From Dehalococcoidia bacterium (GTDB lineage Bacteria > Chloroflexota > Dehalococcoidia > Lucifugimonadales > UBA3495), in contig OY763929.1 of the NCBI GenBank assembly GCA_963667675.1, forward strand, positions 719,386-783,385: a DNA stretch of 64,000 nucleotides. The letters run 5' to 3'. Made by a program: the position numbers and the translations under genes. Every line of letters begins with the position of its first letter. The stretch's first letter is position 1. Below, in pieces: positions 1,843 to 64,000 of this stretch. A model generated the notes under the pieces. It saw nothing but the letters and a program-made list of their open reading frames with translations. It did no database searches and was not told the DNA's origin.

Positions 1843-2451
1843 GTGACGGACCAGGCAGGAACCCCGAACAGGATACGGAAGCCGACGAGTATCAGGGTTA
1901 TCCGTCGGTTCATGTTCCTCGCGTTGTACCTGCATCGCCACTATGCGCCCAGGGTCCAGCTATTGGATCCCCAGTTCCGACGTTCCCGCAAGAATTACCT
2001 GATACAGGTCGGCCTGGCCACCGCCGCCCTGTTTGCCATCCTACTGCTGGTGGACTCCCTCTCCGATGCCGCTCTCGCCGTGGGCCTGGGGTCCAGCGCC
2101 ATCATCATATTCTTGAGCCCTTCCTACCGGTCCGCGTCGCCCCGGGCCCTGGTCGGCGGCCACTTCCTGGGAGTGATAATCGGCCTGGCATGCTCCCTGC
2201 TCCTCTTTTCTACCCCGCTGGATGACTCTATCACCTCCACCCTGCGGGCGGTTATCCTGGCCGTCTCCCTGGGACTCCTGATGTTGGCCATGTCCACCAC
2301 CGATACCGAACACCCGCCTGCCGCTGGCACGGTGCTGGGGATAGCCATCAAGCCTTGGGACCCGGTCACCCTGTACATCATCATCGGCGCCGTCCTGCTC
2401 CTGGCCTGCATCAAATTCCTGCTCCACCGCTACCTCCACGACCTCATCTAG
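1843..2451 (+). CDS. HPP family membrane protein
   Basis: 202-aa polytopic ORF containing the name-giving motif TDTEHPPAAGT. Confidence 0.8.
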   Translation: MTDQAGTPNRIRKPTSIRVIRRFMFLALYLHRHYAPRVQLLDPQFRRSRKNYLIQVGLATAALFAILLLVDSLSDAALAVGLGSSAIIIFLSPSYRSASPRALVGGHFLGVIIGLACSLLLFSTPLDDSITSTLRAVILAVSLGLLMLAMSTTDTEHPPAAGTVLGIAIKPWDPVTLYIIIGAVLLLACIKFLLHRYLHDLI

Positions 2452-2786
2452 CCCAGCCCTCGACCCCCCATCCGTTCGTCCAGAGTATGGCCCCCTTTCA
2501 TTTCCTATTGTCGGTGAGGGCGGAGGCGGCATGGCTCCCAGCCGGGAAATCCTTGCGATTGGGACATTTCGCGACATTTTGGGACATCCCGCCTTCGTCT
2601 GGCGCTTGGGCCTCACCGCAATGGAGCGTCGGCCGGCGGAACACCGTTGGGATTTGGCCGCCGGTAGATATGTCATACGATTTCAGCTTACCGGCCGGGG
2701 TTGGGGTGCGTCAACGGGGAAATGTCAGTAGGGAGGGCGAGATGGGTTGGGGGTCACTACGGGCGGGATTGGGGCCAGGGATTCCT

Positions 2787-3056
2787 GGATACCGGCTTTC
2801 GCCGGTATGACGGGGTGGAGGCGCTGGTATAGCGGGGCGGCGGCTTTGGGGCATGGGTTTTAGATTTCTCGGCTGCGCTCGAAATGACAGGCTGGGTGGG
2901 GGTGGATACCGGCTTTCGCCGGCATGACGGGGTGGGGGCGCTGGTATAGCGGGGCGGCGGCTTTGGGGCATGGGTTTTAGATTTCTCGGCTGCGCTCGAA
3001 ATGACAGGCTGGGTGGGGGTGGATACCGGCTTTCGCCGGTATGACGGGTGGGGCGT
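2787..3056. repeat. 117-bp tandem repeat, about 2.3 copies
   Basis: The unit starting GGATACCGGCTTTCGCCGGTATGACGG recurs at 2787, 2904 and 3021 (period exactly 117) with only a few substitutions. Each unit contains small hairpins (CCGGCTTTCGCCGG; CTCGGCTGCGCTCGAAATGAC) that are also seen in dispersed intergenic repeats. Confidence 0.9.
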
Positions 3057-3154
3057 GCGTGCTGTGCTGGGGTGAGGACAGGGGCGATGGTTTCCCTTTT
3101 AGGTGTATGTGTGACCCAACGAGAGTCTAGCCGGCCGCTGCTTGGAGTTGCGTA

Positions 3155-21031: not shown

Positions 21032-21102
21032 TGGTGGGCCCGGATAGACTCGAACTATCGACCTCGGTCTTATCAGGACCGCGCTCTAACCACCTGAGCT
21101 AC
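21032..21102 (-). repeat. 71-nt 3' fragment of tRNA-Ile(GAU), a perfect direct repeat of 22256-22326
   Basis: Identical to the 3' 71 nt of the intact tRNA (including the encoded CCA). The 5' acceptor strand is replaced by unrelated sequence (GTCCCAA instead of GGGCCCG), so it cannot fold as a tRNA. Confidence 0.85.
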
Positions 21103-21215
21103 TTGGGACGAAGACGCAACCTAACCCCATGCAAGTTGGTGGGGCGTTTGTAGTACGGCATCCCGCTGAGTTTTTGCTTGCGAGGTTAGAGGTTATTAGC
21201 CGCGCAGTCAAGTGG

Positions 21216-22255: not shown

Positions 22256-22332
22256 TGGTGGGCCCGGATAGACTCGAACTATCGACCTCGGTCTTATCAG
22301 GACCGCGCTCTAACCACCTGAGCTACGGGCCC
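22256..22332 (-). tRNA. tRNA-Ile (anticodon GAU), CCA encoded
   Basis: The reverse strand reads GGGCCCGTAGCTCAGGTGGTTAGAGCGCGGTCCTGATAAGACCGAGGTCGATAGTTCGAGTCTATCCGGGCCCACCA. It has a full cloverleaf and the anticodon loop CTGATAA. Confidence 0.9.
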
Positions 22333-22964
22333 ACGCTGTTGACCACGAGATTATATCAACGCCCCCCAACCCCCACAAGTCGGATGGGACCCCAGCCTCC
22401 AACGCGTCATTCCGAGCGAAGCCGAGGAATCTAGAACTCTCAATCGGTAGCCACCGTAGCTGTTGGGGGTTACCCACTACCCTCCCCTCCGTCCGCTGTG
22501 ACAAGAAATACCAAGCCGGCAATCTCCCGCCCGGCCCAAACCGTGTAGGGGCGAAAAATCTTTCGCCCTGCCCGTCCCCACCCAAGTCCTGCCTTCCCCT
22601 GCCTCCCCCAAAATTACTGACAACTTGCCCCTTGCCTACTCCCCTGGCTGCCTATACCCTGTTGTCAGGCAGAGCAACCCCGCCGCGGCTGGTGGTGCGC
22701 CCAAATGGGACTCACTGGGACGACGCTGAAATTTCGGCCCCAGGCCCGTGGCTCTAAATGGCTCAGAATGTCTCTACAAAAAATAGTCCCGCAGGCGTCA
22801 CTGCCGGTATTCCAGCTTCCAAAGCTCATGACGGAATGGCCGCTTTTCTCATTGGGCATAGGCGCTTATTCCCGCCGCCTACCTGCAATTGACAAAGCCA
22901 ACCGTCAACTGTTACGATTGCAAGGTTAAAAATTTCACTATATCCGCTACGAAAGGGAGTAGTA

Positions 22965-23204
22965 GGAGCGCTCCGTCCCAGAGAGCCGGCGGTTGGTGCA
23001 AGCCGGTGACGGAAAGGCCCCGAACTCGCCCCCGAGCGGCCCGCCTGAACCAACCAGTAGGGCGCGGCGGTGGACACCGTTAAACGTCACCAAGCCGTTC
23101 CGGCAACATAACCCTCGGCCATGAGCCGGCAGACAAGTTACCGGAAAAGAGGGGTGGTACCGCGGGAACCATAAGCCCGTCCCTTCGAGGGGACGGGTTT
23201 TTTG
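22965..23204 (+). promoter_or_regulatory. T-box riboswitch leader (candidate Leu specifier CUC) with intrinsic terminator
   Basis: Stem I elements AGTAGTAGGAG, AGAGAG and GGTGCAA. Specifier context GAA-CTC-G at 23022-23028. T-box sequence GGGTGGTACCGCGGGA at 23152-23167. Terminator CCCGTCCCT/GGGGACGGG plus T6 at 23176-23203. Confidence 0.8.
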
Positions 23205-23226: not shown

Positions 23227-24921
23227 ATGGAGATTACCGGCGCAGAAATCGTATGTGAAAGCCTCCTCAAAGAGGGCGTAGACGTGATGTTCGGCCTTCC
23301 CGGAGGGGCGGTCTTGCCCCTCTATGGCGTCTTGTCCGGCTACCCCGGCATTCGTCACGTCTTGGTCAGGCACGAGCAGGCCGCCGTCATGGCCGCCGAC
23401 GGCTATGCCCGCGCCACCGGCAGGGTGGGAGTATGCACCGCCACCTCCGGCCCCGGCGCCACCAACCTGGTTACCGGCATCGCCGGCGCCATGATGGACT
23501 CCATTCCGGTGGTGATCATCACCGGACAGGTGCCCCGGGCTGCCATCGGCCGCGACGCCTTCCAGGAGACCGATGTCACCGGCATAACCTTGCCCATCAC
23601 CAAGCACAGCTACCTGGTGATGCATGCTTCAGACATCGCTCCGGCCATCAAAGAAGCCTTCTACATCGCCCGCACCGGCAGGCCCGGGCCGGTCTTGGTG
23701 GACATACCCAAGGACGTGCTGTTGGACGAGCGCGCCGAATTCGTCTGGCCGGACACTGTCAACCTGCCCGGCTACAATCCCCCCGGAGAGGCCGACCCCG
23801 GGCGAATCGCCAAGGCCGCCGAGTTGATTAACCAGGCCGAGCGCCCGGTGATATTCGCCGGCCATGGTGTCCTCATATCTCACGCCTATGAAGAGCTGGC
23901 CCAGCTCGCCGAGAAGGCCCAGATTCCGGTGGCCCCCACCCTGCTGGGCATCGGTTCATTCCCCACCGACCACTACCTGAACATGGGAATGTCCGGCATG
24001 CACGGCTGGGCCCACTCCAGCCTTGCCATCGACGAAGCCGACCTGCTCATTTCCCTGGGCATGAGGTTCGACGACCGGATTACCGGCCGGCTCAAGGACT
24101 TCGCCCCCAACGCCAAGATAGTCCATGTCGACGTCGACCCTTCCGAAATAGACAAGAACGTCAGGGCCACCGCCCCCGTTGTCGGCAACGTCAAGCAGGT
24201 TCTCCGGCAGTTGCTCCCGTTGGTCGAGTCCAACGTCCACATGGACTGGCTGCGGCGCGTCGACGCCCTCCGCAGCGAGCATCCGCCCATGTTGATTCGG
24301 CAGACCGACGGCCTGCTGCCCCAGTACGTGCTCAGGTCCCTCACCGAGGCCACCCAGGGACGGGCCATCATCGTCACCGGCGTCGGTCAGCACCAGATGT
24401 GGGCCGCCCAGTTCTGCGCCTTTGCCGAGCCGAACACGTTGATTACCTCCGGCGGCCTGGGATCCATGGGCTACGAGGTCCCAGGCGCTCTCGGCGCCAA
24501 GATGGGCCGCCCCGACAAGACCGTCTGGTCCATCGCCGGTGACGGCGGCTTCCAGATGACCATGTGCGACCTCGCCACGGCCGTCGAGAACAACATCGAC
24601 GTCAAGTTCGCCATCTTCAACAACGGCAGCCTGGGCATGGTCCACCAGTGGCAGGACCTCTTCTACGACAAGGACTATTTCGCCACCGTCTACTCCGGCA
24701 ACCCCGACTTCGTCAAGCTGGCCGAAGCCTACGGCATCCCCGGCGTCAGGGTCACCGCCAAGGAACAGGTGGCCGGCGCCATCCAGCAAGCCATGGAGAC
24801 CCCGGGACCAGCGGTCATCGACTTCGTGGTCGTCCCGGAGGAGAATGTCTATCCCATGATCCCGGCCGGGGAATCGGTTAAGGAAATGATGGAAGAGCCC
24901 ATCCCCGAGAGCATCGAATAG
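23227..24921 (+). CDS. ilvB: acetolactate synthase large subunit
   Basis: 564 aa. MEITGAEIVCESLLKEGVDVMFGLPGG and the ThDP motif GGLGSMGYEVPGALGA...IAGDGGFQM.... Confidence 0.95.
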   Translation: MEITGAEIVCESLLKEGVDVMFGLPGGAVLPLYGVLSGYPGIRHVLVRHEQAAVMAADGYARATGRVGVCTATSGPGATNLVTGIAGAMMDSIPVVIITGQVPRAAIGRDAFQETDVTGITLPITKHSYLVMHASDIAPAIKEAFYIARTGRPGPVLVDIPKDVLLDERAEFVWPDTVNLPGYNPPGEADPGRIAKAAELINQAERPVIFAGHGVLISHAYEELAQLAEKAQIPVAPTLLGIGSFPTDHYLNMGMSGMHGWAHSSLAIDEADLLISLGMRFDDRITGRLKDFAPNAKIVHVDVDPSEIDKNVRATAPVVGNVKQVLRQLLPLVESNVHMDWLRRVDALRSEHPPMLIRQTDGLLPQYVLRSLTEATQGRAIIVTGVGQHQMWAAQFCAFAEPNTLITSGGLGSMGYEVPGALGAKMGRPDKTVWSIAGDGGFQMTMCDLATAVENNIDVKFAIFNNGSLGMVHQWQDLFYDKDYFATVYSGNPDFVKLAEAYGIPGVRVTAKEQVAGAIQQAMETPGPAVIDFVVVPEENVYPMIPAGESVKEMMEEPIPESIE

Positions 24922-58168: not shown

Positions 58169-58224
58169 CACGCAATCACCCGTGTGGTAGGTTTGTCGCC
58201 AAAGGCTGTGATGGAGACGAGTAG

Positions 58225-58470
58225 GTAAGGGTAGGCGGAGAGCGAGCCTGGGTTGGTGTGAGCAGGCGCGCCGAACTTGTCCGAAAATCCCTCCGGAGCC
58301 GCCGGCTGAAGTCCTTCTAACGAAGGCTGGGTAGGCCGAGACGGGGTCGTCGCCCGTTAGCAACGACGGGGCATGTTGGTGTCCTGCTAGAGAGGCCCGC
58401 CTGAGGCGGGCAAATAGGGTGGTACCGCGGGAATCATTGAGTCCCGTCCCTATAAAGGGCGGGATTTTTC
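58225..58470 (+). promoter_or_regulatory. T-box riboswitch leader (candidate Leu specifier CUU) with intrinsic terminator
   Basis: GAGTAGGTAAGG, GGAGAGCGAGCC and GGTTGGTGTGAGC are Stem I elements. Specifier context GAA-CTT-G at 58273-58279. T-box sequence AGGGTGGTACCGCGGGA at 58416-58432. Terminator TCCCGTCC/GGGCGGGA plus T5 at 58442-58469. Confidence 0.8.
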
Positions 58471-58637: not shown

Positions 58638-60317
58638 GTGAAACTAAAGGGCGCCGAGATAATGTGCGAGAGCCTGCTGCGGGAGGGCGTCGACGTTATC
58701 TTCGGCTATCCCGGCGGGGCAATATTGCCCTTCTACGACGCTCTGTGGAGCTATCCGCAACTGCGCCACATCCTGGTGCGGCACGAACAGGCGTCGGCCC
58801 ACGCCGCCGACGCATACGCCAGGGTTACCGGCAGGCCCGGAGTCTGCGTGGCCACCTCCGGCCCCGGCGCCACCAACCTGGTCACCGGCATCATGGGAGC
58901 CAAGTCCGACTCGGTGCCCATGATCGCCATCACGGGCCAGGTCGCCAGGCCGGTAATGGGTACGGAAGCGTTCCAGGAATGCGACATCTGCTCCATCGCC
59001 GCCGCCTTCACCAAGAAGACCTACCTGGTCATGTCGCCCGGCGACCTGGCAACAATATTCCGGGAAGCCTTCTTCACGGCCCTGGACGGTCGGCCGGGGC
59101 CCGTTCTGATCGACGTGCCGCGAGACGTGCAGTTGGAGGAGACGGAGGTCGAATTCCCCGAAATCCCTGAGCCCTGCGCCATCCCGGTGTCCGATGAGAC
59201 CATGGCGGCGGTGCACGACGCGGCCCGGCTGATCGGCGAGGCCAAGCGGCCGGTGATAATAAGCGGGCACGGAGTGCTCAGTTCGGGGGCTTCGGCCGAG
59301 GTCAAAGCCCTGGCCGAGACCACCGGCATCCCGGTGATCAGCACCCTGCTGGGGCTCAGCGGTTTTCCGGCCAACCATCCCCTGAACCTGGGCATGATGG
59401 GGATGCACGGCATGTACTGGTCCAACATGGCGGTGGACCAGGCGGACGTGATAATCGGCCTGGGGATGCGGTTCGACGACCGGGTGACCGGCAAGGCGTC
59501 CACCTTCGCTCCCCACGCCCGGATAATCCACCTGGACATCGAGCCTTCACAGGTGGGGCGGAACGTGCCGGTGGAGGTGCCTTTAGTCGGCGACGCCAAG
59601 GCGGTGCTGCAGGCCCTGCTGCCCCTGGTGAGCTACGTGGACCGCCCGGAGTGGATGGGCTTCATCCGGGACCAGCGGCGGGACCATCCGTCGTTGGAGA
59701 TACCCAAGTCGGAAATCCTGCAGGCCCAGCAGGTCATGACTGCGCTGAACGGGCTGATCCAGGAAGACCCGGAGACGGTCGTAGTTACGGGGGTCGGTCA
59801 GCACCAGATGTGGGCCGCCCAATTTCTGGACTTCAACCGGACCAACAGCTTCGTCTCCTCGGGCGGACTGGGGGCCATGGGCTTCGAGCTGCCCGGCGCC
59901 TTGGGCGCCCAGGCGGCCCGTCCCGATGCAACGGTGTGGAGCATCGCCGGCGACGGCGGCTTCCAGATGACCCTGCAGGAACTGGCCACGGCCATGGAAG
60001 CCAAGCTGCCGGTGAAAGTGGCCCTGTTCAACAACGGCTACCTGGGGATGGTACGGCAGTGGCAGGAGCTGTTCTTCGAGCAGCATCTTAAAGAAGTCCC
60101 GATCCCGGGCCCCGACTACGTCAAGCTGGCCAACGCCTACGACGTACCGGCCCTGCGGGTAACCGACCCGGAGGACGTGCTTCCGGCCCTGCGCCAGGCC
60201 CAACAGTACGACGGGCCGTTCCTGATCGAGTTCGTGGTCGAGCCGGTGGGCAACGTCTATCCCATGGTGCCCCCCGGCGGCTCCCTGGCCGACACGGTGG
60301 AAGACCCGTCGTTGTAG
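58638..60317 (+). CDS. acetolactate synthase large-subunit paralog (no adjacent small subunit)
   Basis: VKLKGAEIMCESLLREGVDVIFGYPGG..., and the ThDP motif GGLGAMGFELPGALGA...IAGDGGFQM. A GTG 58638 or ATG 58662 start is likely. The track start 58419 lies inside the T-box leader. Confidence 0.9.
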   Translation: MKLKGAEIMCESLLREGVDVIFGYPGGAILPFYDALWSYPQLRHILVRHEQASAHAADAYARVTGRPGVCVATSGPGATNLVTGIMGAKSDSVPMIAITGQVARPVMGTEAFQECDICSIAAAFTKKTYLVMSPGDLATIFREAFFTALDGRPGPVLIDVPRDVQLEETEVEFPEIPEPCAIPVSDETMAAVHDAARLIGEAKRPVIISGHGVLSSGASAEVKALAETTGIPVISTLLGLSGFPANHPLNLGMMGMHGMYWSNMAVDQADVIIGLGMRFDDRVTGKASTFAPHARIIHLDIEPSQVGRNVPVEVPLVGDAKAVLQALLPLVSYVDRPEWMGFIRDQRRDHPSLEIPKSEILQAQQVMTALNGLIQEDPETVVVTGVGQHQMWAAQFLDFNRTNSFVSSGGLGAMGFELPGALGAQAARPDATVWSIAGDGGFQMTLQELATAMEAKLPVKVALFNNGYLGMVRQWQELFFEQHLKEVPIPGPDYVKLANAYDVPALRVTDPEDVLPALRQAQQYDGPFLIEFVVEPVGNVYPMVPPGGSLADTVEDPSL

Positions 60318-60412: not shown

Positions 60413-60817
60413 GTGGTTAGGGTCAGAATCCAAGAGGCGTCCCGCCGGCTGAACGTCTCCCAGCGGACCATCAGGGAGTCGATACGCAGCGGCGAGTTGA
60501 AGGCCTTCCGGGAGCGCGGCCCCCAGGGCGAGTACTGGGTCGTGGAGCTGCCCGAAGAGGGGTGGCTGGACCGGCACAAGAAGTCCTACTTGGAGTTGGA
60601 CAGCCAACTGCCCCACTGGTGGTGGAACAACGAGGAAAAGACGGGCGAGGTCCACTACATCCAAGACCTGGGCATCGAGGAGATAGAGCCGGTATACCTG
60701 TGCGGCCTGCGGGGCGAGAACATCTGGAGCGCGGCAGGCCACTCGCCGGACGACAGGTGCGCCGAGTGCATGGAGGCGGCCCTGGCCATGGGGCTGCCGC
60801 TGGACCCGCGGGCCTAA
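60413..60817 (+). CDS. excisionase/MerR-type HTH protein with a Cys-containing C-terminal region
   Basis: IQEASRRLNVSQRTIRESIRSGELKAF matches the HTH_17-like pattern. The C-terminus has CGL...CAEC. Confidence 0.5.
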   Translation: MVRVRIQEASRRLNVSQRTIRESIRSGELKAFRERGPQGEYWVVELPEEGWLDRHKKSYLELDSQLPHWWWNNEEKTGEVHYIQDLGIEEIEPVYLCGLRGENIWSAAGHSPDDRCAECMEAALAMGLPLDPRA

Positions 60818-60820
60818 GGA

Positions 60821-62224
60821 CTAGCCCACGCCCGGCTGAGTCATAGCCTCGGGCTTCAGCAGGCGGTCGAGTTCTTCGTCGGACAGGTCGGTCTTCAGCT
60901 TGGCCACTTCCCGGATGGTCTTGCCGGTTGCAGCGGCTTCCTTGGCGATGGCCGCGGCGGCGTCGTATCCGATGGCCGGCGACAGGGCGGTCCCCAGCAT
61001 CAAGCCACGTTCCACCATGTCCGGCCCCGCGGAGGTTGCCTGGATTCCGCTGACGCACTGGCGGGAGAAGTTGCTCGCCGAGGCCGCGAGCAGGGAGACG
61101 GACTGGAGCAAATTGTAGGCGGCGACGGGCATCATGGTGTTCAACTCGAAGTAGCTTCCCTGGCCCGCCAGGGCCACCGCGGCGTCGTTGCCCACCACGT
61201 GGGCCACCACCTGGACCACCGACTCGGATATGACCGGATTGACCTTGCCGGGCATTATGGAACTGCCCGGCTGCACCTCGGGCAGGGTTATCTCGCCCAG
61301 TCCCGCCCTGGGGCCGGAGGCGATGAAGCGGATGTCGTTGGCGACCTTGTGCAGGCTGACGGCGACGGTCTTGAGGATGCCGCTGGCCTCGACCACGGCG
61401 TCCAGCGTGGATTGCGCCTGGAAGTGATTCCCCGTCTCCCTGACGCTGACGCCGGCTATCTCGCAAAGGGTCCGGCAGGTCTTGGAGGCGAACTCGGGGT
61501 GGGTGTTCACGCCGGTGCCCACGGCGGTGCCGCCCAGGGCCACCTCGGACAAGGCCTCCTGGAGCCGCTCCAGTCGCAGCAGGCTGTACTCCACCTGCCC
61601 GGCGTAGCCCAGGAATTCCTGACCCAAGCGGACGGGGGTTGCGTCCTGCAGGTGGGTGCGGCCGGTCTTGACTATGGGCCAGAACTCCTGAGACTTGCGT
61701 TCGAGTTCGGCCTTGAGGTCCTGCAACGCCGGGACCAGGTCTTCGCGGACGGCCATCAACGCCGCCAGGTGTATGGCGGTGGGAATGACGTCGTTGGACG
61801 ACTGGCCCATGTTCACGTGGTCGTTGGGGTGCACCAGCCGGGAGCCCGGCTCGGCCCCCAGAATCTGCGAGGCCCGGTTGGCGATGACCTCGTTGGCGTT
61901 GGTGTTGGTGGAGGTGCCGGAACCGGTCTGGAAGATATCTAGGACGAAGTGCTGGTCGAGGCGGCCTTCGGCGACCTCTCCGGCGGCTGACACAATGGCT
62001 TCGGCTATGTTCTGGTCCAGCAGTCCCAGGGAGGCGTTGGCCCTGGCGGCGGCCAGCTTTATCAGTCCCAGGGCGCGGAGAAAGGTCCTGGGAAACCGGA
62101 GATCGCTGATGGGGAAGTTGAGCACGGCCCGCATGGTGGAGGCGCCGTACAAGGCGTCTTGAGGGACCTCCATGGGCCCCATGGAATCGCGCTCAATTCT
62201 AACGTTGCTCTTGGAATCGGACAT
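60821..62224 (-). CDS. fumC: class II fumarate hydratase
   Basis: RIERDSMGPMEVP, FQTGSGTSTNTNANEV, GRTHLQDATP, GGTAVGTGVNTHPE and GSSIMPGKVNP. It is closer to the FumC pattern than to AspA. Start at ATG 62224 (MSDSKSNVRIE). Confidence 0.8.
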   Translation of the reverse strand: MSDSKSNVRIERDSMGPMEVPQDALYGASTMRAVLNFPISDLRFPRTFLRALGLIKLAAARANASLGLLDQNIAEAIVSAAGEVAEGRLDQHFVLDIFQTGSGTSTNTNANEVIANRASQILGAEPGSRLVHPNDHVNMGQSSNDVIPTAIHLAALMAVREDLVPALQDLKAELERKSQEFWPIVKTGRTHLQDATPVRLGQEFLGYAGQVEYSLLRLERLQEALSEVALGGTAVGTGVNTHPEFASKTCRTLCEIAGVSVRETGNHFQAQSTLDAVVEASGILKTVAVSLHKVANDIRFIASGPRAGLGEITLPEVQPGSSIMPGKVNPVISESVVQVVAHVVGNDAAVALAGQGSYFELNTMMPVAAYNLLQSVSLLAASASNFSRQCVSGIQATSAGPDMVERGLMLGTALSPAIGYDAAAAIAKEAAATGKTIREVAKLKTDLSDEELDRLLKPEAMTQPGVG

Positions 62225-62447
62225 CGAATCACTATCCTGGCAATGGATTGGCCCCGTGTCGCGCCCGTAGCCTAGGCACGTGGGCCGAAAGGGCCGGGAA
62301 CCTATGTTGCCACCGTCGTTGGTTTTTGGCAACCGGCGGGCCTATGCCGGACTGAGAGAGCCGCTCTTTCCACGGCCCGCATTATTCTTGGAACAGTTTT
62401 GGGGGGGTAGGTCAAGGATACTCTCACTTCACTCTCCCTTGCATGCC

Positions 62448-62476
62448 TTGACAACCCTGCAGGGCGCTGGTAATAT
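62448..62476 (+). promoter_or_regulatory. sigma70-type promoter (TTGACA, 17 nt, TAATAT)
   Basis: Consensus -35 at 62448-62453, a 17-nt spacer, and a near-consensus -10 at 62471-62476. The predicted transcription start at ~62483 is 0-3 nt before ATG 62485. Confidence 0.5.
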
Positions 62477-62484
62477 CCGCCTTG

Positions 62485-62568
62485 ATGTTCGCAGTTATGT
62501 GCTTGTGTTGTTGTCCATGGGAGGCCAGAGAGCCTTCTGCTCGGACACGCGCGGCGGCGAACACCTAG
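62485..62568 (+). CDS. candidate leader peptide MFAVMCLCCCPWEAREPSARTRAAANT (4 Cys in 5 codons)
   Basis: 27-codon ORF between the promoter and the terminator, upstream of cysH-cysD. Cys codons lie at 62500-62502 and 62506-62514. Confidence 0.4.
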   Translation: MFAVMCLCCCPWEAREPSARTRAAANT

Positions 62569-62598
62569 CGCAGACAGAACAGAAGCAAAGAACTCTGG

Positions 62599-62627
62599 CC
62601 CCCTCCAAGTGCGGAGGGGGTTTTTTT
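62599..62627 (+). terminator. intrinsic terminator in the cysHD leader
   Basis: CCCCCTCC, loop AAGTGC, GGAGGGGG, followed by T7. It lies 30 nt upstream of the cysH start. Confidence 0.75.
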
Positions 62628-62656
62628 GTGCCCGGATAGCCTGAGACGGAGCAAGG

Positions 62657-63406
62657 ATGCCGGTACTAGAGACAAATAGATTGGGTATAGAAGAGCTTGC
62701 CGACTTGAACGAGCGGTTCGAGTCGGCCCAGCCGGGCGAGGTTCTTGCGTGGGTCGATGCGCGTTTCGGCGCCGCGGCGGCCCAGATGTCCAGTTTCGGC
62801 CTGGAAGACGTGGCGCTGTTCGAGATGTTCTGGCGAGTGAACCCGCAGGCGCGGTTGATGACGCTGGACACCTGGCGGCTGCCTACTGAAACCTACACGG
62901 TGATGGACCAGACCCGGCTTCGCTACAACGCGCACATCGAGGTGTACCAGCCCGACCCTGAGGCTGTGGCGAGAATGGTCGGGGAGCACGGGTTCAATCT
63001 GTTCTACCGGGGCCGGGAGCATCGCCTGGCCTGCTGTCACGTGCGTAAGGTGGAGCCCTTGGAGCGCGCCCTGGCGGGCGTCGACGCATGGATTACGGGC
63101 CTGCGGCGCGACCAGGGGATGGAGAGGGGCAACATAGGAATCGTCGAGTGGGATGCACCCCACGGCAACTACAAGGTCAACCCGCTGGCAAACTGGACTT
63201 TCGAGGAGGTACGACAGTACGTGGACGAGCACGCTGTTCCCTACAACGAACTACACGACATGCACTACCCATCGATCGGGTGCGCGCCATGTACGCGGGC
63301 CGTAGAGCCGGGAGAGGACCCACGGGCCGGGCGATGGTGGTGGGAGTCGGACCCCAACGCCAAGGAATGCGGGCTGCACCTGGTGGCGGCGGAGGCTCGT
63401 TCATGA
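62657..63406 (+). CDS. cysH: assimilatory APS/PAPS reductase (Fe-S type: CC...CxxC present)
   Basis: ...LACCHVRKVEPL..., ...IGCAPCTRAV..., and the C-terminal KECGLH motif. Confidence 0.9.
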   Translation: MPVLETNRLGIEELADLNERFESAQPGEVLAWVDARFGAAAAQMSSFGLEDVALFEMFWRVNPQARLMTLDTWRLPTETYTVMDQTRLRYNAHIEVYQPDPEAVARMVGEHGFNLFYRGREHRLACCHVRKVEPLERALAGVDAWITGLRRDQGMERGNIGIVEWDAPHGNYKVNPLANWTFEEVRQYVDEHAVPYNELHDMHYPSIGCAPCTRAVEPGEDPRAGRWWWESDPNAKECGLHLVAAEARS

Positions 63407-64000
63407 TTGCAACCAGTACACTGGCGATGCCGCCTGGGGCCAACGGGCATGACACGCAATCCGAGTCCAGGCATTTGCATGCCCTGGAGTCGGAAGCGGT
63501 ACACATCATCCGGGAAGTGGTGGCGGAATTTGACCGGCCGGGGCTGCTGTTCTCCGGCGGCAAAGACTCGGCGGTGCTGCTTCATCTAGCGGCCAAGGCG
63601 CTGCGGCCGGCCCACCTGCCGTTCCCCGTGATTCACATCGACACCGGCCACAACTTTCCAGAGGTCCTTGCTTTCCGCGACCGGGTGGTCGAGAGGCTTG
63701 GCGTGGATCTGGTCGTGGGCTCGGTTGACGAGGCAATTGCTTCAGGGCTCATTCCGGTTCCACCTTCACCTGATTACTCCCGCAACCGCATGCAGACGCC
63801 GGTGCTGCTGGAAACCCTCAACCGCGGCAAGTTCACTGCGGTTTTCGGCGGCGCGCGACGGGATGAGGAACGTTCACGAGCCAAAGAACGGGTGTATTCG
63901 GTGCGCGACGAATTCGGCCAGTGGGACCCGAGGAACCAGCGGCCGGAAGTGTGGGACATTTACAATGGCAGCATCGGGCTGGGCCAGCACATGCGGGTCT
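63403..64000 (+). CDS. cysD: sulfate adenylyltransferase subunit 2 (partial; continues past the window end)
   Basis: ATGA overlap with the cysH stop. LHALESEAVHIIREVVAEF..PGLLFSGGKDSAVLLHLA..., IDTGHNFPE, FGGARRDEERSRAKER. The frame is open to base 64000. Confidence 0.9.
   Translation, partial: MIATSTLAMPPGANGHDTQSESRHLHALESEAVHIIREVVAEFDRPGLLFSGGKDSAVLLHLAAKALRPAHLPFPVIHIDTGHNFPEVLAFRDRVVERLGVDLVVGSVDEAIASGLIPVPPSPDYSRNRMQTPVLLETLNRGKFTAVFGGARRDEERSRAKERVYSVRDEFGQWDPRNQRPEVWDIYNGSIGLGQHMRV

Follow-up and report, generated by a model that had tools for sequence, protein, structure and literature searches.

The window analysed here is a 64,000-nucleotide stretch of contig OY763929.1 (forward strand, positions 719,386 to 783,385) from the Dehalococcoidia bacterium assembly GCA_963667675.1, phylum Chloroflexota. 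Near its end lie cysH, the reductase gene of sulfate assimilation, and the beginning of cysD, whose start overlaps the cysH stop (ATGA). At the related locus L001 the operon goes on with a CysN-like GTPase after cysD. The subject of this report is the leader upstream of cysH, a candidate transcription attenuator made up of a promoter, a short open reading frame (ORF) rich in cysteine (Cys) codons, and an intrinsic terminator. Its CysH homologues and matching genome loci assign the window to uncultured Dehalococcoidia. Sequencing runs that contain the window sequence are mostly sponge metagenomes.

The promoter at 62448-62476 is the sole sigma-70-like site within 61500-64000. The ATG at 62485 that opens the leader ORF stands 8 nt past the -10 box and lacks a Shine-Dalgarno sequence, suggesting that the ORF is leaderless or nearly so. 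Transcription is predicted to start at this ATG or 1-3 nt from it, and an in-frame TTG is found upstream, at 62482. Four of five successive codons specify Cys (62500-02, 62506-08, 62509-11 and 62512-14), with Cys8-Cys10 consecutive, and this is the only short ORF in the window with four Cys in six codons behind a promoter-like site. The terminator combines an 8-bp G+C stem with U7 (-17.7 kcal/mol), and 29 nt separate the end of its U-tract from the cysH ATG at 62657. Two pairs of segments are exactly complementary, GGCCAGAG (62523-62530) with CUCUGGCC (62593-62600) and CUUCUG (62534-62539) with CAGAAG (62580-62585). The first-pass annotation of the window had named all of these elements, and they were recovered as it described them: the TTGACA-17 nt-TAATAT promoter to the base, the 27-codon ORF with its four Cys codons by direct reading, the strong terminator ahead of cysH, and both segment pairs exactly. 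The leader also folds more stably than its shuffles (z = -2.25). Coordinates are collected in Table 1.

Table 1. Features of the cysH leader and operon, and T-box leaders elsewhere in the window.
Feature	Position	Strand	Description and basis
-35 hexamer TTGACA	62448-62453	+	intact in 17/17 close-family sequences
Extended -10, TG-n-TAATAT	62468-62476	+	TG 62468-62469, TAATAT 62471-62476; 17-nt spacer after -35
Leader ORF	62485-62568	+	27 codons + TAG 62566-62568; translation MFAVMCLCCCPWEAREPSARTRAAANT
Putative regulatory Cys codons, TGC-(TTG)-TGT-TGT-TGT	62500-62514	+	Cys6, Cys8-10; direct reading
P1	62509-62547	+	last Cys codons 62509-62513 pair with 62543-62547, closing P2; RNAalifold consensus
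Predicted antiterminator 5' strand	62519-62539	+	GGG-A-GGCCAGAG..CCUUCUG; within leader ORF, 4 nt past last Cys codon; constrained folds
P2 hairpin	62520-62537	+	GGAGGCC / loop / AGCCUUC; sequesters antiterminator 5' strand; RNAalifold and single-sequence folds
P3 hairpin	62549-62571	+	contains leader stop TAG 62566-62568
Predicted antiterminator 3' strand	62580-62603	+	CAGAAG...CUCUGGCC-CCC; last 5 nt = base of terminator 5' arm; constrained folds
Intrinsic terminator	62599-62627	+	5' arm CCCCCTCC 62599-62606 (as RNA CCCCCUCC), loop AAGTGC, 3' arm GGAGGGGG 62613-62620, T7 62621-62627
cysH Shine-Dalgarno GGAG	62647-62650	+	predicted pairing local
cysH, first gene under putative control	62657-63406	+	thioredoxin-dependent adenylyl sulfate/3'-phosphoadenylyl sulfate (APS/PAPS) reductase; NCBIfam NF002537 267 bits, TIGR02055 240 bits, both above cut-offs
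cysD	63403-64000	+	sulfate adenylyltransferase small subunit; NF003587 260 bits, above cut-off; cut by window end
T-box leader RF00230	22940-23187	+	111 bits; terminator to ~23205; ends CCCGTCCC..GGGACGGG-T6
Second T-box leader	58199-58454	+	109 bits; terminator to ~58470; specifier read as AUC (Ile)

Conservation and structure in close relatives

The leader was compared across a close family of 17 Dehalococcoidia sequences, the window and 16 further loci. All 17 retain the -35 and -10 elements, the start codon, the Cys run, a GGAGGCCRGAG..CUUCUG block, the stop-codon region, and CUCUGGCC with the terminator. In every member a TAnnnT box lies 16-18 nt past the -35 hexamer, and a GTG or ATG start follows 7-8 nt past the -10 box. 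Upstream of the -35 hexamer the sequences are unrelated, so that conservation begins at the promoter. For the same reason a 119-codon ORF in another frame (62280-62639), which spans both promoter and terminator, was considered and dismissed. The first-pass annotation had put forward an alignment of related cysH upstream regions as a check on its model; in this alignment the Cys run is found in all 17 sequences and the alternative helices are kept, with weak covariation in the antiterminator.

The Cys run holds three to six codons per leader, with TGT and TGC interchanging and the number variable, and it is always in frame with the start. Past the run, GGAGGCC is read as G-GAG-GCC in six sequences (..EAR..) and as GG-AGG-CC in the other 11 (..RRPEG..), and in L012 a 1-nt insertion relative to its nearest relatives alters all of the peptide past it as well as the stop codon at which the ORF ends. 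Since the Cys codons stay in frame despite indels while the frames downstream differ, the Cys codons are under selection as codons, the remainder as RNA.

Two mutually exclusive structures are predicted for this RNA. In the terminator state, given by RNAalifold and by single-sequence folds, P1, P2, P3 and the terminator are all formed. P1 is paired in 92% of alignment cells across relatives, with changes from U-G to U-A. P2 is paired in 97%, with C-G replaced by U-A in three sequences and G.U by A-U in L007 and L014. P3 is paired in 92-98%, with one C-G to U-A swap, in L007, where the stop is kept as TAA through a compensating C to U in the hairpin. The covariation is genuine for P2 and P3, and P1 and P2 together would serve as a conserved anti-antiterminator. 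In the alternative state GGG 62519-62521 pairs with CCC 62601-62603, 62523-62530 with 62593-62600, and 62533-62539 with 62580-62586, enclosing P3. The first of these helices takes five of the eight nucleotides of the terminator 5' arm (62599-62603); the first-pass annotation had the helix reaching into this arm, as found here, with an overlap of 2 nt rather than 5. Across relatives 86-87% of antiterminator cells are paired, compared with 40-47% in slid registers.

Stop codons are conserved in two frames (alignment A1 columns 83-85 and 91-93; window 62558-62568), as TGA in 15 of 17 sequences and as TAG or TAA in all 17, and any one leader uses just one of the two. This conservation fits a positional constraint, but P3 alone may account for the pattern.

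Ribosome position and the proposed switch

Ribosome positions along the leader were scanned by footprint-constrained folding, with the RNA either cut before the terminator 3' arm or full-length at equilibrium. A footprint on the first Cys codon replaced the terminator-state fold with the long antiterminator in 17 of 17 close-family leaders. When the RNA was cut, the base of the 5' arm was paired for positions of the ribosomal A site up to Cys6 or Cys8, and partly Cys9, and was freed once the ribosome covered 62519-62539, where the antiterminator was lost. The folds thus reproduce the first-pass prediction that a ribosome stalled on the Cys codons leaves the antiterminator in place. With full-length RNA and the A site on Cys8-10, the minimum free energy (MFE) structure retained the antiterminator, and all that was left of the terminator was a 6-7-bp stem no longer adjoining the U-tract. 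The bottom three terminator pairs became less probable at equilibrium in 12 of the 17 leaders, dipping to 0.3-0.7 in nine and to ~0.8 in three, and the dip was confined to A-site positions on the Cys run or one to two codons upstream. The probability of the whole stem was flat at 0.8-1.0 for all ribosome positions; it is uninformative because the stem is very stable, and the bottom pairs or the cut RNA are the informative measures.

The contribution of the sequence between the Cys run and the terminator was assessed by shuffling that region. Of 34 leaders, 33 had a positive stall-minus-pass difference; the mean was ~0.3, versus ~0.05 in shuffles. The difference consistently exceeded that of the shuffles, but p for individual leaders was only ~0.0-0.3. 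The absolute probability that the arm is paired does not discriminate leaders from shuffles, because G-rich shuffles likewise pair with the C-rich arm.

We consider it quite likely that the leader is a ribosome-mediated, Cys-responsive transcription attenuator of cysH-cysD(-cysN), sensing the supply of charged tRNA-Cys. Transcription would start at or near ATG 62485, and a ribosome would load at the 5' end without a Shine-Dalgarno sequence. When Cys-tRNA is scarce, this ribosome would stall with its A site on one of the first Cys codons (62500-62511), covering the 5' strand of P1 and leaving 62519-62539 open to pair with 62580-62603 once the latter is transcribed. The antiterminator would then hold the bottom 5 nt of the terminator 5' arm, so that the terminator could not close beside the U-tract and RNA polymerase would continue into cysH. 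When Cys-tRNA is plentiful, the ribosome would pass both the Cys codons and 62519-62539 and end at the stop within P3, between the two antiterminator strands, and P1 and P2 could re-form behind it. With 62519-62539 passed and the ribosome between the strands, the antiterminator would be unavailable while 62599-62627 is transcribed; the terminator would therefore form, and transcription would stop 29 nt before cysH.

Several observations weigh against this model. Free full-length RNA has an MFE of -57.7 kcal/mol in the terminator state and -48.2 kcal/mol in the best antiterminator state, a gap of 9.5 kcal/mol. The first-pass annotation had held that full translation of the ORF melts the antiterminator helix, and this part of its model stands in part: the helix is lost with a ribosome on 62519-62539 but can re-form, in silico, with a ribosome on the stop codon. 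The antiterminator covaries weakly, with mostly invariant positions or one-sided changes and a single G-C to C-G swap (L039), and 37 of 500 shuffles reached the observed covariation score. A spacing of 8 nt from the -10 box to the start codon is towards the upper end of what a strictly leaderless ORF would have. Among leaders at other cysH loci, described below, ribosome-position profiles are ambiguous in several types, and those of L030, L035, L063, L071 and L049-L051 (SAR202-type and one other lineage) contain a single Cys codon (e.g., MDVKLFSMFCNNINK), with the -10 box, short ORF and terminator retained. A search restricted to RNA libraries returned no runs, and the runs holding the locus are assembled contigs of flat depth that carry no strand or end information.

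Since equilibrium favours the terminator and the antiterminator re-forms at the stop, the model depends on kinetics and sterics that lie outside equilibrium folding. Termination in replete cells would need a ribosome on or between the antiterminator strands. It could still be translating 62519-62568 while RNA polymerase makes 62580-62627, or it could be parked at the stop, hindering the long-range helix while the local P2 and terminator form. The switch we propose would thus combine ribosome stalling with a kinetic or steric block of the antiterminator in replete cells.

Cysteine-codon leaders and T-boxes at cysH loci

Loci for a wider comparison came from a genome scan (37 loci), a metagenome scan with CysH (34) and three look-ups (three more). 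The megabase-scale metagenomic contigs P0053, P0057 and P0091, which carry homologues, yielded three of the leaders, and no cultivable model organism was identified among these three contigs. A DNA pattern for the window-type leader (GGAGRCYRGRRRGYCTTC..CTARCGCMGAC) gave no matches on metagenome contigs. Upstream of cysH in other Chloroflexota we found about 12 further leader types with the same architecture and little or no sequence similarity to the window leader. In their common plan the start codon stands 7-10 nt past a -10 box, which is often TGnTATACT; the ORF, 16-31 codons long, contains a Cys cluster, and the terminator comes 3-38 nt past its stop. Like the close-family leaders, they have no Shine-Dalgarno sequence. 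Each type has at least two Cys codons and most have at least three, in peptides such as MVNVTMCCCCCC.., MVNVTMCCCCCCREAAG.., MTLLCLCTACCC.., MSFQNACCC(C).., ..NCACTCC.., ..GLCLCICGR.., ..YACACCG.., ..AKCSCCK.. and MMFVRSLT.TCCCTGVP. Across 19 representative leaders Cys is the commonest residue, at 14.4% versus 6.9% and 2.9% in the other two frames.

A Cys-rich leader (at least two Cys) with a terminator precedes 45 of 61 informative cysH loci. By class, at least three Cys in six codons are present at 35 of the 61 (our own tally), a CxC pair at 10, a single Cys codon at seven and a Cys T-box at one; one locus is ambiguous, and the other seven have nothing recognisable or another gene directly upstream. 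A blind scan covered 793 kb, that is, both strands of 71 loci and the window. Its pattern required a start codon 5-10 nt past a -10 box, then an ORF of 8-45 codons in which three or more of six are Cys, and a terminator. The scan returned 35 matches, all on the cysH strand and upstream of a cysH operon, tauE-cysH operons included. Judged by these comparisons, the candidate attenuator is widespread in Dehalococcoidia-type Chloroflexota.

The gene content behind the leader varies. The MMFVRSLT.TCCCTGVP leader, with CTC and CFC variants, and its terminator are found in L024 (1966-2125) and also in L023, L025, L027, L028 and L031. In the L024 group a gene of the TauE/SafE sulfite-exporter family lies between this leader and cysH, suggesting that the attenuator controls a tauE-cysH operon there. 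In L074 a gene with PUA_2 and ATP-sulfurylase domains (sat-type, 1997-3145) follows cysH in place of cysD-cysN, and a Cys leader (..RVCLCCNPS..) with its terminator still lies upstream of cysH. In L017 (Thermoflexus) a run of Cys codons and a terminator are present without a canonical start codon in that frame.

The first-pass annotation had reported no T-box or S-adenosylmethionine (SAM)-I-like sequence in the window leader, in agreement with our searches. A permissive Rfam search of 62200-62720 gave no significant family and matches at chance level only, and at gathering thresholds on the whole window the leader was unmatched. The best match was Phe_leader, itself a leader-peptide attenuator, at 19 bits over the full model length versus a gathering score of 55. 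The T-box model (RF00230) had no match in 62200-62720 even at E <= 10, and neither a Stem I nor a T-box sequence was found there. With its filters set permissively, cmscan matched none of SAM-I/II/III/IV/V/VI, SAM-SAH and the other sulfur and methionine riboswitches of Rfam 15 to the leader at E below 1.

The identical Rfam library does detect T-boxes: two elsewhere in the window and, in L059, one ahead of cysH. The T-box at 22940-23187 has a specifier read as CUC (Leu) and is followed by a gene for the large subunit of acetolactate synthase (23227-24921); that at 58199-58454 precedes a second paralogue of this gene (~58650-60317). The specifiers, Leu versus Ile, suggest that the T-boxes ahead of the two ilvB paralogues respond to different branched-chain amino acids. 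Both T-boxes end in a hairpin and U-tract, which indicates that attenuation at intrinsic terminators is used elsewhere in this genome. Two tRNA-Ile(GAT) genes lie on the minus strand ~1.1 kb apart, at 21036-21109 (Rfam score 45 bits, model positions 7-64) and 22256-22332 (68 bits). Between ilvB and a divergent aspartase/fumarase-family gene (60821-62224, minus strand) there is a small plus-strand ORF (60413-60817) with a weak match to the excisionase-family helix-turn-helix (27.2 bits versus a cut-off of 28.8).

L059 is a metagenomic relative whose CysH is 61% identical. Its T-box (207-461) is upstream of cysH (~656), with a specifier loop GAAG-UGC-A read as UGC (Cys), and a second GGUGGAACCACGAG-plus-terminator repeat at ~470-600 is possibly a tandem T-box. 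The presence of a Cys T-box before cysH suggests that tRNA-Cys charging is the relevant signal for cysH in the phylum.

Alternative explanations and known systems

The Cys-codon ORF might sense Cys-tRNA and yet act on cysH translation, mRNA stability or Rho rather than through the intrinsic terminator. This has a precedent in mycobacteria, where a ribosome-binding site is sequestered (bioRxiv 10.1101/834739), and the cysH Shine-Dalgarno sequence is partly paired in the predicted structures. We consider it improbable, as a conserved 8-bp G+C stem and U7 stand between the ORF and cysH in all relatives. The Shine-Dalgarno pairing is local (62646-62651 with 62660-62664) and identical in the antiterminator and terminator states, and control of cysH translation through this sequence was rejected on that ground.

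A switch that binds a metabolite or protein (SAM, O-acetylserine, cysteine or a regulatory protein), with the short ORF incidental, would explain why the nucleotides past the Cys run are better conserved than the peptide and why P2 and P3 are conserved hairpins. Translation of the leader ORF is, moreover, predicted from sequence rather than from transcript-level data. We nevertheless find such a switch quite improbable: no Rfam family matches, and the dissimilar leader types have in common only a promoter-proximal start, in-frame Cys codons and a terminator. In addition, the spacing from -10 box to start codon is fixed, and the Cys codons remain in frame with the start despite indels.

Small Cys-rich proteins exist, and with its own promoter and terminator the ORF could be a gene in its own right, encoding a small Cys-rich peptide (metal- or redox-active, for example), cysH being expressed separately. 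This is very improbable given that residues outside the Cys run are unconserved, the frame shifts among close relatives, and the 29 nt from the U-tract to cysH hold no promoter-like site. The linkage to cysH operons is strict (35 of 35 blind-scan matches), and a peptide gene would give the conserved antiterminator no role. In a single sequence, chance could produce any one element, such as a promoter-like site or an 8-bp complement, but a fortuitous likeness to an attenuator, with a terminator and ORF of no regulatory role, is scarcely credible and already contradicted by the comparative data, the full arrangement being kept in 17 close-family sequences and 28 other cysH loci with nothing comparable elsewhere in 793 kb.

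The attenuator we favour belongs to a familiar kind, since leader-peptide attenuation is a textbook principle. The classical attenuators of E. coli and Salmonella (trp, his, leu, thr, pheA and ilv; Rfam Trp_leader, His_leader, Leu_leader, Thr_leader and Phe_leader) share with the window leader an ORF in which codons for the amino acid that the pathway makes are clustered, and a terminator and antiterminator that exclude each other and are chosen by ribosome position, a choice predicted here by folding. There is no sequence homology between them, and the window leader would sense Cys, appears leaderless and comes from a Chloroflexota host. In trpL the stop codon lies before region 2. The window ORF, in contrast, runs 17 codons past the Cys codons, through the antiterminator 5' strand, and stops between the antiterminator strands.

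Closer in codon content are the leaderless polycysteine small ORFs (sORFs) of mycobacteria, which act translationally, as in Ms5788A, where a Shine-Dalgarno sequence is released from sequestration (Canestrari et al., 2020, bioRxiv 10.1101/834739, Mol Microbiol 114:93). As in the window, a leaderless ORF (5'-RUG there, a predicted start here) with consecutive Cys codons stands upstream of cysteine and sulfur operons, a ribosome stalled on these codons remodels downstream pairing (by folding, in the window), and such ORFs have originated many times, at numerous loci. Ms5788A works without an intrinsic terminator, whereas a conserved intrinsic terminator would be the output of the window leader, for which no state-dependent Shine-Dalgarno pairing is predicted. 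The two come from different phyla and have no sequence similarity.

In Rhodobacterales, the uORFC-8-2 motif upstream of cysS, whose upstream ORF (uORF) contains tandem Cys codons, is a candidate for ribosome-mediated attenuation (Brewer et al., 2021, PMC8632094). It resembles the window leader in these tandem codons, in a first stem that contains them and in a terminal intrinsic terminator. It differs in controlling cysteinyl-tRNA synthetase, in having two Cys codons at positions 14-15, in its alpha-proteobacterial host and in that no leaderless start is described; the two show no sequence similarity, and no such Rfam match was obtained, the motif's presence in Rfam 15 being unconfirmed. Candidate Cys leader peptides have also been reported upstream of cys and cbs operons in Actinobacteria, with the mechanism left open and Rho suggested (Seliverstov et al., 2005, PMC1262725). 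These are likewise short ORFs with Cys-codon runs ahead of cysteine biosynthesis operons, but they lack a recognisable terminator, in contrast to the canonical terminator and predicted antiterminator of the window leader. Leaderless genes have been predicted in some Chloroflexi (Zheng, 2011, PMC3160421). Cys T-boxes share the signal, charged versus uncharged tRNA-Cys, and the choice between terminator and antiterminator, and in L059 a T-box occupies the same place upstream of cysH. A T-box binds the tRNA directly, whereas the window leader, which has no T-box sequence or Stem I, would read charging through a translating ribosome. Our literature search, with subscription journals outside its coverage, found no leader-peptide attenuator for cysH or in Chloroflexi.

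A wider synthesis, which we offer tentatively and regard as possible rather than probable, is that a diversified superfamily of leaderless Cys-codon attenuators governs sulfate assimilation across Dehalococcoidia and SAR202-type Chloroflexota, lineages that are largely uncultured and marine or sponge-associated, replacing or replaced by Cys T-boxes at cysH. The window type would then be a variant in logic, with a translated antiterminator 5' strand and two-frame stops in a hairpin that park the ribosome as a steric wedge; ribosomes slipping out of frame at hungry UGU/UGC codons might be intercepted by the second-frame stop.

If the attenuator model is true, assimilatory sulfate reduction (cysH-cysDN) would gain its first described leader-peptide attenuator, and so would the Chloroflexota. 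The attenuator would unite two formerly separate observations, the leaderless polycysteine ORFs of mycobacteria and classical attenuation by terminator and antiterminator. As a compact marker defined by its sequence, the leader could help to locate Cys-regulated operons in SAR202 and Dehalococcoidia metagenome-assembled genomes, and it would be a candidate Cys-responsive part for synthetic biology. With cysH apparently under a tRNA-Cys signal read by the ribosome in some lineages and by a T-box in their sisters, these bacteria would provide a case for studying the exchange of regulatory devices.

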